DNA of 46,081 bases from a virus (Duplodnaviria > Heunggongvirae > Uroviricota > Caudoviricetes). Location: the IMG/VR virus record IMGVR_UViG_2684623059_000005; one strand, given 5' to 3'. Within the stretch, counting starts at the first letter, position 1. Each line of letters starts with the position of its first letter. Positions 36,201 through 39,200 of the stretch are shown here, piece after piece. The position numbers were made by a program.

Positions 36201-39200
36201 TCTCGCGCGGATTTGCGGGACTGGTGATGTTCTTGCCGAACATGCAGCCTTTCGCTGTCAGCGACCAGAATTTTTTGATGTTGTTAATCGCGGTACGGCT
36301 GTATCGTTCGCGCTGCTCGACGATCCCCAGCTTCACCATCTGGTGATATGCCTGATTAGCCGTCAGGCGGATACCATACTGTTTCAGCAGTGCACTCAGT
36401 GACAGTGTCGGGCGACTTGAGCCATCGTGTGCATCAGCAGGAGCATCAATGGCATAGCGCGGTGCCAGATTCGGTAAGCCAACAGCCTCCTGGAGTTTCT
36501 GACAGGCCCCAAGCACTGAAGAGTTAGACAGGTTTAACTCCCTGCGCATAAAGTCCAGCAGAATCACTCCAGCCTGCATCTTGTCAGCAGCCTGCCCGGA
36601 TAATTTTTCCGGTGCGCTGGTTACCATATCGAAAGTACGGATCACCTTCAGATGGAATGACGGGCTGATCCACATTGCATAGGCATACACCAGTTCTTTG
36701 CAGACATACGTCCCCTGGTTATTTCCGCCATTAATGACGCTAACTGGTTGATTTTGTTCCAGAGGCGGAATTCCACCCTCGGTGAAAAGTTGTTCAATCA
36801 ATTCACAGGTTTGCTTATTGGAGAGCCAGTATTTCGGGCGGTTTTTTTGTTCTCCCCCGGCAGCCCTGTGCAGATCGTTCAGGCTGTAACGCCCATAAGC
36901 ATCACGACGAACTTCAATACCATCAATGACCATCAGATTATTCATACTTCGTTTCTCCTCTTGATCAGGCGGCTGCACCCGCCGGTTTCTCATACTTACT
37001 GATAGTGATCTCGACCTTCCCTTTCGGGATAACCGGTCCCCACTCCACCAGCATTCTTTTCACCTGTCTGTCGTCTTCCCACACACCCGCGTGGGTCAGG
37101 GCGTCAAACAGCGCCTTGTTATAGTTGTCCAGATCGCGGATCCGGTTATCCGGAGGAAACAACACGATCTCCACTGAAGCAGGTGCCGACGTTGGTTTTG
37201 GCAGACGACGTAACTGCTCAACTATTGCTGCGCACGCCGCGCTCTGAAATTTTCGCCCCGCCGCGCTTATCAGGCTCTTACCAGCAAATGCCCCTTTGTT
37301 GGGGTGTCGCCAGTACGTGTTCACGCTGGGCGGGAAAGGCAGGATCAGCTTCATACTTTCAGGCCTCTCTCATGTAACCAGTGGGTTGCACGCAGCCTGG
37401 CGTTTTCCTCACCGGCAAGCAGTGAGCGGATAATCCCGACCGCCTCGCTGTCGTCGTCCTTCACCGCGGTATGAAGAGTGATACCCCGGGCCACGCCACG
37501 CTTTATCGTGATGACGCCTTTTTTCTCCAGTGCGCGAAGATGTTCCACCGCTGCATTCACTGAACGGTATCCCAGCATGGTTGCCACCTCCTGATTGGTT
37601 GGCGGGAAGCCACGTTCTTTCTGGTAAGAAATCAGCATATCCAGCACCTGCTGCTGGCATTGAGTTAACGTCGTCATGCCGCCATCTCCCTGACCAGTTT
37701 TTCCGCCTGCTGGCGAACCTGCGCCAGAAACGCCTCACCACATGCCTCAAGTTCATCACGCCCGATGTAGCTGATTGCCGGTCCCTTCCAGGTCTTGTCG
37801 AAAACAGCAATAGCACCAGCGAAGAAAGCGCCTGTCGGCACCTGCTTCTCATCTTTCGGGATAAACCAGGCAGGCAGTTCAAAACCAATACGCCCGCGAA
37901 TAAAAGCAATATGATCTGCATCTTCCGGCCACCACACTTCGCTGGTGGCAGCTTTGATCAGGAAAACATAGCGCCCGCCTTTATCACGCATGGCACTGGC
38001 ATGTTTCATGATGTAACGCATGCCGGTGATGTATTGCCCCTCATGCTGACTGGCGCGGCTGTATGGGGGATTACCAAAAGCAGCACCTTTAAGCTCCGCA
38101 AGACGTTCTGACCAGTCATGCGCCAGCGCGTTGTCTTCCGCCGTGTAATACGCGGCACATTTGGCGTTATCACCGTCAGTGAACAGATCCAGAACAAACG
38201 GACCAAACAAGGTGTTAATTCCCCAGAAAATGTTGTCCGGCGTGCGCCACTGATCGCCCACTTCCTTCAGTTCATGGGCTGGTTTGTTCCGCAGTTCTAC
38301 CAGCGCCTGGCAATATTTATTACTCATTAAGCCCCCACGTAAAAAGCATCCGCAATGTCTCCGGAAGTACAGCCCGGATGGGCTTCAATGAATTTCTGAA
38401 CGTCATTTAACAGACTCATGATCACCCCCTGAATCCTGCCGGGATCTGGCTGTAGTCCACGTTGTCGTAACTGGCTTTGAAGTACGGGTCTTCACGTTTT
38501 TCTGTGTGCGTGCTGACGGACGGCGATAAGCGCAGGGAAAGCTCATCCCATTTTTCCCGCAACTTCGACGGGCTGAGCACGTTACGGCACCAGAACGGAT
38601 CGCGGCTGACGCGGCTGTACATCTCGCAGATTTGTTTGTGAGTACGACCATCCTGCACACACATCAGGCGAATTTCGTTTGCCCATGCTGTCCAGTTCGG
38701 TTCTTTGGGACGAACCACCTCGCCGTCACATTCGGCGGCCTGCTCGTACAGGGCGATGATTTTTTTCCAGAGCCACTGTGCGCAGGTCAAATCATCCTGC
38801 GTTCCCCACTGGCGCTTTTTAGGGCTGAATACAACCGCATCAGGATGGCGAGTTAAAAACTCCTGTTCAGCCGTTTGCGTGTCCGGTTGCGAAGCGTCCG
38901 GACGAGAAGAGGTTTTATTCTCTGTAGTAATCTCTGTTGTATTCTCTGTAAGATCATTGGGCCATTTTGACCCGATGACAGCGTGTCGTTTTGAACCAAT
39001 GGATCGTGTCATTTTGCGCCCATCCATCAGGTCACTTTGACCCGATGGAGAAGTGCATTTTGACCTGATGGATTCGTTCACTTTGACCTCTTCTAAAAGC
39101 TCACTTTCATAGTTGATCGTGTAGAAGTTGGTCATGTCACGCTTCGATTTATTGAGTTGCTCGCGACGCAAAACCCCAAGTGATTTCAGGCTTGCAAATG

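Follow-up and report, generated by a model that had tools for sequence, protein, structure and literature searches.

We analysed the virus record IMGVR_UViG_2684623059_000005 (Caudoviricetes), a stretch of 46,081 nucleotides (nt) whose full length is referred to here as the window, and which is a lambdoid prophage adjoining dusA. The subject is a block of genes that starts at the stop codon of an O-like replication gene and encodes, in order, a 30-amino-acid (aa) open reading frame (ORF), a Dam-type N6-adenine methyltransferase (Dam), a 108-aa protein with a LexA-type DNA-binding domain (DBD; the LexA-like protein) and the RusA Holliday-junction resolvase. It is highly probable that the block, with all its parts taken jointly, is an ordinary early operon in which the 30-aa ORF is a deletion remnant of yfdN, the methyltransferase is an orphan Dam, the LexA-like protein is a DNA-binding regulator and the tight packing of the genes is generic. 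The module is already known, being annotated in phages SfV, SfII and cdtI and in Stx2c phages, and the remnant has already been flagged by the Prokaryotic Genome Annotation Pipeline (PGAP). It is a very common prophage module with matches in about half of the complete E. coli genomes, and as it stands it matters little. The part of interest is the LexA-like protein, which is widespread, is under purifying selection and has a recognition helix nearly like that of LexA.

Gene order and junctions of the early-right operon

ORF calling on the window placed all genes of the block on the minus strand, and the ORFs are genuine. The O-like replication initiator (330 aa, 38422-39414, stop TGA at 38424-38422) matches the whole of PHROG 391 ('replication initiation O-like', E = 1e-101), and a Pfam search with its product gave no match. 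Downstream of it lie the 30-aa ORF (38327-38419, from ATG at 38419 to TAA at 38327, with an alternative GTG start at 38425), identified by alignment to the yfdN genes of SfII and K-12 as a remnant of this PerC-family gene; Dam (217 aa, 37674-38327; PF05869, E = 1e-45); the LexA-like gene (37351-37677; PF01726, E = 3e-19); and RusA (36965-37354; PF05866, E = 1e-14). These are followed on the same strand by a KilA-N domain gene (36136-36945; PF04383, E = 5e-27), whose start (MNNLMV), 19 nt past the RusA stop, was set by comparison with the SfII and PGAP annotations. The early-right operon closes with the DUF968/HNH gene (35139-36134; PF06147, E = 7e-81) and the Q antiterminator gene (34373-35167; PF03589, E = 7e-54), which together span 34373-36134, and all gaps in this operon are 19 nt or less.

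Upstream of the block, a consensus scan of the minus strand found a single site resembling a promoter, a pR-like sigma-70 match at 40608-40636; between 36900 and 39500 it found neither a promoter-like nor a terminator-like site on that strand. Pattern matches are weak evidence, but the result is consistent with one early-right transcript spanning the block. The region is most probably the delayed-early part of the rightward operon in a lambdoid E. coli prophage of the SfV/SfII/Stx2c/cdtI type. Transcription of the minus strand from the pR-like promoter would pass through the cro-like, cII-like and O-like genes, the last with the origin iterons, and the yfdN remnant, and would continue through the Dam-type methyltransferase, the LexA-like protein, RusA, KilA-N and DUF968 to end at Q. 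The iterons are five 23-nt direct repeats with the core TTTTGACCCGATG and a spacing of 23-24 nt, which a repeat search located inside the O-like gene (38955-39070); by analogy with the lambda ori they presumably form a putative phage replication origin.

The closest known systems are the early-right (nin-type) modules of SfV, SfII, the Stx2c and Stx2a_1447 phages and the K-12 prophage CPS-53 (yfdO-yfdN-yfdM), with 97-98% identity and the order O, PerC/yfdN, Dam, LexA-type DBD, RusA, KilA-N, DUF968, Q. The nucleotide identity of the block itself is 97-98% to SfII, the Stx2c and Stx2a_1447 phages and several E. coli phages, all with the same gene order. The window differs from the SfV/SfII/Stx2c module by a 396-nt in-frame deletion in yfdN, and CPS-53 breaks off inside yfdM and has no LexA-like gene. 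The inducible lambdoid phage cdtI (AB285204) of enteropathogenic E. coli carries the same deletion junction (97.5% over a 40-mer) and the same order of Dam, LexA-like protein and RusA, but has another replication and antirepressor region upstream; in its annotation dam is extended by 45 nt. For an 8-kb stretch the best genome matches reached 96% coverage at 97% identity, values that would fit a mosaic prophage.

The sequence-only reading of this stretch had described the replication gene, the 30-aa ORF, Dam, the LexA-like gene and RusA as chained by overlapping stop and start codons. Direct reading bears this out for three of the four junctions: that between the 30-aa ORF and Dam is TAATG (1-nt overlap), and those between Dam and the LexA-like gene and between the LexA-like gene and RusA are both ATGA (4-nt overlaps). 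The first junction, TGATCATG, does not fit the description, as it consists of the stop TGA, a 2-nt spacer (TC) and the ATG; an overlap (GTGA) arises there solely with the alternative GTG start at 38425, which is the start that PGAP uses for yfdN. In a hand count from the annotation of SfII, 15 of about 43 adjacent same-strand pairs of coding sequences overlap by exactly 1 or 4 nt. Since about one third of the same-strand pairs of a related phage overlap in this way, the overlaps are a matter of generic operon compaction rather than the mark of a functional unit. Every gene of the block also has its own Shine-Dalgarno-like sequence, so that dependence of a downstream gene on translation of the upstream one is not implied. 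The stop/start overlaps are ordinary phage operon packing and no sign of joint function, and the corrective lesson is that such overlaps in phage operons should not be taken as functional linkage.

The same reading had proposed that the 30-aa ORF, Dam and the LexA-like protein are translationally coupled and function as a unit, with the LexA-like protein setting the timing of methylation or working with the methyltransferase. In favour of this, the 1-nt and 4-nt overlaps do link the three genes, most close relatives (at least 95% identity) have Dam directly upstream of the LexA-like gene, and there is a precedent of a different kind in an MT-A70 methyltransferase of a Shiga-toxin (Stx) phage, which depends on a small subunit encoded next to it (PMC10810198). 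Gene orders in other phages speak against it. The LexA-like gene occurs without Dam in SfIV (O, PerC, LexA-like), 2H10 (O, PerC-like, LexA-like, RusA), mEp390 (O, LexA-like, RusA, DUF968, Q), a Klebsiella phage (DinI, hypothetical, LexA-like, hypothetical, DUF968, Q) and prophages of C. freundii (O, PerC, LexA-like, RusA), and in several of these it sits directly after PerC or O; a Salmonella salamae prophage has the full order including Dam. Homologues of Dam were found in 587 phage records, against 63 with the LexA-like gene. Taken with the commonness of such overlaps and the origin of the 30-aa ORF as a deletion remnant, this makes a coupled unit very improbable, and the claim of a functional pair does not survive. 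Judged by their distribution, Dam and the LexA-like gene are independent mosaic modules that are adjacent often but not always.

The yfdN remnant and the orphan methyltransferase

Between O and Dam, phages SfII and Stx2a_1447 and the CPS-53 prophage of K-12 carry yfdN, a PerC-family gene of 162-164 aa, as do most related prophages. Alignment with the SfII and K-12 genes showed that the 30-aa ORF consists of yfdN codons 1-26 joined in frame to its last four codons and stop. YfdN of K-12 reads MSLLNDVQKFIEAHPGCTSGDIADAF, then AGYS...YLSGN, then YVGA and the stop, whereas the ORF in the window passes from MSLLNDVQKFIEAHPGCTSGDIADAF directly to YVGA and the stop. Codons 27-158 were thus lost in a single in-frame deletion of 396 nt, or 132 codons. 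The junction lies at 38342-38343, with 1-2 nt of microhomology, as located by the split alignment of a 65-nt junction query. On genomes with intact yfdN this query splits into positions 1-32 and 32-65; since the two pieces span 461 nt there for a query of 65 nt, the deletion measures 396 nt and is in frame. The remnant would have arisen by this one deletion through illegitimate recombination.

The PerC domain (PF06069) covers residues 98-149 of K-12 YfdN and lies inside the deleted part. The remnant retains only residues 1-26 and 159-162, and the 30-aa ORF gave no match against Pfam. As the PerC domain is gone, the remnant is most likely non-functional; in strains CFS3292 and 2009C-3675 it is a pseudogene in the PGAP annotation, with the remark 'incomplete; missing C-terminus'. 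Of 5,426 complete E. coli genomes, 116 contain a 40-mer specific to the junction (115 of them at 99% identity or more), and the junction also occurs in the inducible phage cdtI. About 2,620 genomes match the junction region, most of them with an intact yfdN, and a 291-nt probe around the 30-aa ORF matches 2,680 of the 5,426 genomes. The expectation that the short ORF would be a gene conserved in related prophages is not borne out, as what the relatives conserve is the long yfdN. The short ORF, whose first 26 codons are those of a longer gene elsewhere, is the product of a deletion. The deletion allele adjoins at least two different O alleles. Together these findings fit a deletion that happened once, was spread by recombination and is tolerated by a viable phage.

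Both the start of the remnant and its TAATG junction with dam are the native ones, so that the frame remains open. It might then be a functional leader ORF, whose translation delivers ribosomes to the overlapping dam start. The deletion of exactly 132 codons preserved the native start, the Shine-Dalgarno sequence and the stop/start overlap alike, and the allele persists in the 116 genomes, beside at least two O alleles, and in the inducible cdtI. However, an in-frame outcome of a deletion has a 1-in-3 chance anyway, and the single junction common to all carriers fits one event spread by recombination. Moreover, dam has its own G-rich Shine-Dalgarno-like sequence 4 nt upstream of its start, and in SfII the yfdN stop abuts the dam start without overlap (TGAATG), so the overlap is not required. 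A leader function is therefore quite unlikely.

Some points nevertheless weigh against our overall reading of the block as an ordinary operon with a spent remnant. The remnant ORF could still be translated and aid the access of ribosomes to the dam start, and an in-frame deletion found beside at least two O alleles is compatible with mild selection for the frame. In addition, we infer both the specificity of the methyltransferase and the target of the LexA-like protein.

As a side observation, a prophage of C. freundii (GCA_037107715.1, L011 4520-5001) has a 480-nt stretch without a called gene at the place where its close relatives L012 and L013 have a PerC-family gene. This gap may represent a second, independent inactivation of a yfdN-like gene.

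The identification of Dam rests on scores far above the family cut-offs: 255.6 bits against TIGR01712 (phage_N6A_met; cut-off 97.05) and 156 bits against PF05869 (cut-off 28.1). It also matches the PADLOC model MTase_II over its full length, the PADLOC matches being to methyltransferase models only. Its translation contains the catalytic motif NPPY at residues 86-89 (38061-38072, minus strand). NPPY is motif IV of N6-adenine methyltransferases. No solved structure is related to it by sequence. The neighbours of dam are the yfdN remnant and O on one side and the LexA-like gene and RusA on the other, with no restriction enzyme among them. Because no restriction enzyme adjoins it, Dam is an orphan, and here the sequence-only reading, which had called it an orphan N6-adenine methyltransferase, is upheld by the phage family match and by the lack of a restriction endonuclease alongside. 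In its scores, in NPPY and in having no cognate endonuclease it resembles the other phage methyltransferases of TIGR01712/PF05869, whose members include proteins described as Dam of phages HP1, T1 and VT-2. Its homologues in the 587 phage records come from many hosts.

From its family membership we infer that Dam has GATC specificity. GATC is not strongly depleted in the prophage, with an observed/expected ratio of 0.85. The enzyme M.EcoVT2Dam, which may belong to the same family, is stated to target GATC (PMC6602927). An Stx-phage enzyme called 'Dam-like', of the MT-A70 family with a DPPW motif, methylates 16S rRNA together with a partner subunit (PMC10810198). We considered this enzyme as a counterpart of Dam in the window and rejected it, as it belongs to another family and another genome position; it serves only as a caution on assumptions about the substrate.

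Several RefSeq phage records (NC_021857, NC_003444, NC_009514 and others) name the Dam-type methyltransferase 'phosphoadenosine phosphosulfate reductase'. Dam matches PHROG 33262, a profile of 495 positions, at positions 283-492 only, and this PHROG is the apparent source of the name. The reductase label is probably a misannotation derived from a fusion.

The LexA-like protein and its candidate targets

The 108-aa protein matches PF01726 at residues 1-65 and no other domain significantly in the Pfam search. It has no match to Peptidase_S24 (PF00717), the chain ending at residue 108 and lacking Ser119 and Lys156; the cI-like immunity repressor of the window does match PF00717 in the same kind of search. 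Against the lexA equivalog TIGR00498 it scored 70.8 bits, below the cut-off of 110.95, and it matches PHROG 362 ('transcriptional repressor') along its entire length (E = 1e-59; residues 1-108 aligned to all 106 positions of the profile). In the PGAP annotation it is called 'LexA family transcriptional regulator'. Its identity to residues 1-86 of E. coli LexA is 43% (over 90 residues), rising to 50% over the first 68 residues, and its best match by sequence among solved structures is the LexA DBD 1lea (E = 7e-16).

An AlphaFold2 model (mean predicted local distance difference test score, pLDDT, of 79) shows a winged helix-turn-helix at residues 6-68 and two helices at residues 75-87 and 93-103, with a linker of low confidence between the two parts. 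Residues 1-68 of this model match the LexA-DNA complex 3jso at 1.4 Å with 50% identity in a Foldseek search. On the strength of PF01726, 1lea and 3jso, and with no match to a non-LexA family, the earlier description of the protein as a LexA-type DBD without a peptidase domain stands. The two C-terminal helices form a hairpin (residues 75-103; 37369-37455, minus strand) with a block pLDDT of about 87. In an exhaustive search with a profile, relatives matching over the full length (about 105-135 aa, 40-50% identity) proved to conserve this two-helix tail as well; the tail is thus a feature of the family and not a LexA linker. In the model it is a possible dimerisation or partner-binding element. 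The 108-aa protein is most probably a functional DNA-binding regulator built of a LexA-type winged helix and a conserved helical hairpin, and since it has no S24 domain it should not be cleavable through RecA.

For the same reason the label 'RecA-mediated autopeptidases', which the annotation of cdtI gives to this protein, was rejected. A LexA-type Ala-Gly cleavage site was also considered: 'LLAGEE' in the protein aligns with 'VAAGEP' in LexA, but homologues have LLVGEE or LLANEE and the motif is absent from distant relatives. We discarded this candidate as not conserved, and the 'AGE' match is probably a coincidence, there being no protease domain.

The protein is 100% identical to its copies in phages SKA5, Ayreon and Kati and in several Stx2c phages. 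Compared with the copies in SfII and SfIV, the ratio of non-synonymous to synonymous substitution rates (dN/dS) is about 0.1, and the DBD shows no non-synonymous change at a proportion of synonymous differences (pS) of 0.12-0.16. The comparison with the C. freundii copy gave a pS of 0.79 and a proportion of non-synonymous differences (pN) of 0.20. On these substitution patterns the LexA-like gene is a working gene under purifying selection.

The recognition helix of the protein (residues 39-52, SVNAAVEHLRALEK; 37522-37563, minus strand) aligns with SPNAAEEHLKALAR of LexA. The base-contact residues of LexA are S39, N41, A42, E44 and E45 (PMC3091678); the LexA-like protein has S39, N41, A42, V44 and E45 at these positions. 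As four of the five contact residues are kept, recognition of a CTGT-type half-site is plausible from the sequence. The protein differs from E. coli LexA in Val44, in the missing S24 peptidase/dimerisation domain and in its unrelated two-helix tail. Position 44 is hydrophobic or small, and never Glu, in all ten full-length relatives of the short family that we inspected. The homologue in C. freundii has T42, A44 and G45, and distant members vary at positions 41, 42 and 45. The variation of base-contact residues within the family weakens the reading that these proteins compete at SOS boxes. The SOS box of Citrobacter is the same as that of E. coli. With this shared box, the T42/A44/G45 of the C. 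freundii homologue indicates that the family is not locked to one operator.

We scanned the window with an SOS-box matrix built from 26 E. coli boxes. Two strong boxes were found, CACTGTTTATCCATACAGTT (3750-3769, 21.0 bits) and TACTGTATACAAACACAGTA (3778-3797, 22.7 bits), directly upstream of a gene of the DinI family, and the scan gave no further SOS-like site of at least 11 bits in the window. The exact pattern CTGT-N8-ACAG has three matches in the window, one of them weak and intragenic. Inverted repeats near Q and in the immunity region were tried as operators and set aside, none having CTGT-type half-sites, and no inverted repeats suitable as alternative operators were seen in the non-coding regions searched.

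These boxes invite the explanation that the LexA-like protein is a non-cleavable mimic of LexA. Made from the early-right operon after induction, it would bind host-type SOS boxes (CTGT-N8-ACAG), including the pair before the DinI-like gene, and restore or modulate repression while the host LexA is being destroyed. The DBD with its identity to LexA and its fold match, the four retained contact residues, the missing S24 domain and the two strong boxes are all in keeping with this, as is the Klebsiella phage with DinI two genes upstream of the LexA-like homologue. On the other side stand Val44, with its hydrophobic or small counterparts in ten of ten relatives, and the contact residues of the C. 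freundii homologue. LexA, furthermore, requires its C-terminal domain for dimerisation on the box, and a dimer formed through the helical tail might have another geometry; SfII has no annotated DinI, and a full-text literature search of limited coverage gave no experimental report or other functional study of the enterobacterial 108-aa protein. We therefore regard a LexA mimic as unlikely. The broader form of the proposal, in which the PHROG-362 proteins in general are RecA-proof LexA mimics that re-occupy SOS boxes after induction, those of the DinI-like gene included, is similarly doubtful. If it were true, the phage could switch off the host SOS regulon, or change its timing, and do the same to the induction of rival prophages under LexA control; were the protein to act on SOS boxes, pathogenic E. 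coli, Shiga-toxin phages included, would have an SOS brake that is encoded by a phage and proof against cleavage.

Another explanation is that the protein is a phage-specific regulator with an operator of its own, unlike the SOS box. The model for this is gp6 of GIL01, a tectivirus of Bacillus thuringiensis: a truncated LexA homologue, about 44% identical to the host LexA and made early, which binds a distinct site at the late promoter P3, overlapping the -35 element, and activates transcription (PMC6182141). Like gp6, the protein in the window is phage-encoded and is essentially a LexA DBD alone, with no cleavage domain. Such a regulator is favoured by the variation of the contact residues among the family members, by the constant position of the gene in the early-right operon, upstream of DUF968 and Q, and by the many proteins in viral proteomes that consist of a stand-alone LexA DBD. 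However, our searches of the non-coding regions and of the window for SOS-like sites offered it no candidate operator apart from the DinI-like pair, and the Q antiterminator already serves late transcription. The case differs from that of GIL01, moreover, in that the phage in the window has a Q antiterminator and its protein carries the extra helical hairpin. We consider a phage-specific operator of the gp6 kind possible but on the whole not probable.

Seven proteins of about 140-220 aa in a representative protein library (P0132, P0133, P0152, P0153, P0156, P0159 and P0163) have two LexA-DBD stretches per chain. These natural tandem proteins may be single-chain pseudo-dimers.

Other features of the window

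The DinI-family gene that follows the two SOS boxes (3811-4059; PF06183, E = 1e-19) looks, from its family and its boxes, like an SOS-inducible RecA modulator at the prophage end. The integrase gene, which abuts dusA, lies at 2652-3749. It is thus at the tail-fibre/effector end, and yfdP/yfdQ-like early-left genes (42683-46081) run off the right end of the window, an arrangement that is the reverse of the lambda prophage layout. The integrase and the DinI-like gene may belong to a neighbouring or composite element.

Two type III secretion effector genes were identified, one of the IpaB/EvcA family (4560-5150, minus strand) and one for NleG (5333-5959, plus strand); two further ORFs within 6064-7121 gave no match in a Pfam search. 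This effector cargo suggests an effector-carrying lambdoid prophage of the enteropathogenic/enterohaemorrhagic E. coli (EPEC/EHEC) type. The cI-like immunity repressor with its S24 peptidase domain is encoded at 40679-41305. Downstream of Q are three tRNA genes, Gly(tcc), Thr(tgt) and Met(cat) (33144-33446, minus strand); Stx-like lambdoid phages commonly have a tRNA cluster at this place.

An ORF of 112 aa (39424-39762, minus strand) lies between O and the cII-like gene; its match to PHROG 1170 is full-length, and the annotation of SfII includes it. In a different frame of the same strand is a DUF4222 ORF of 70 aa (39371-39583), which is annotated by PGAP and overlaps the start of O by 44 nt. 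Both have family support, and they may be a true overlapping gene pair.

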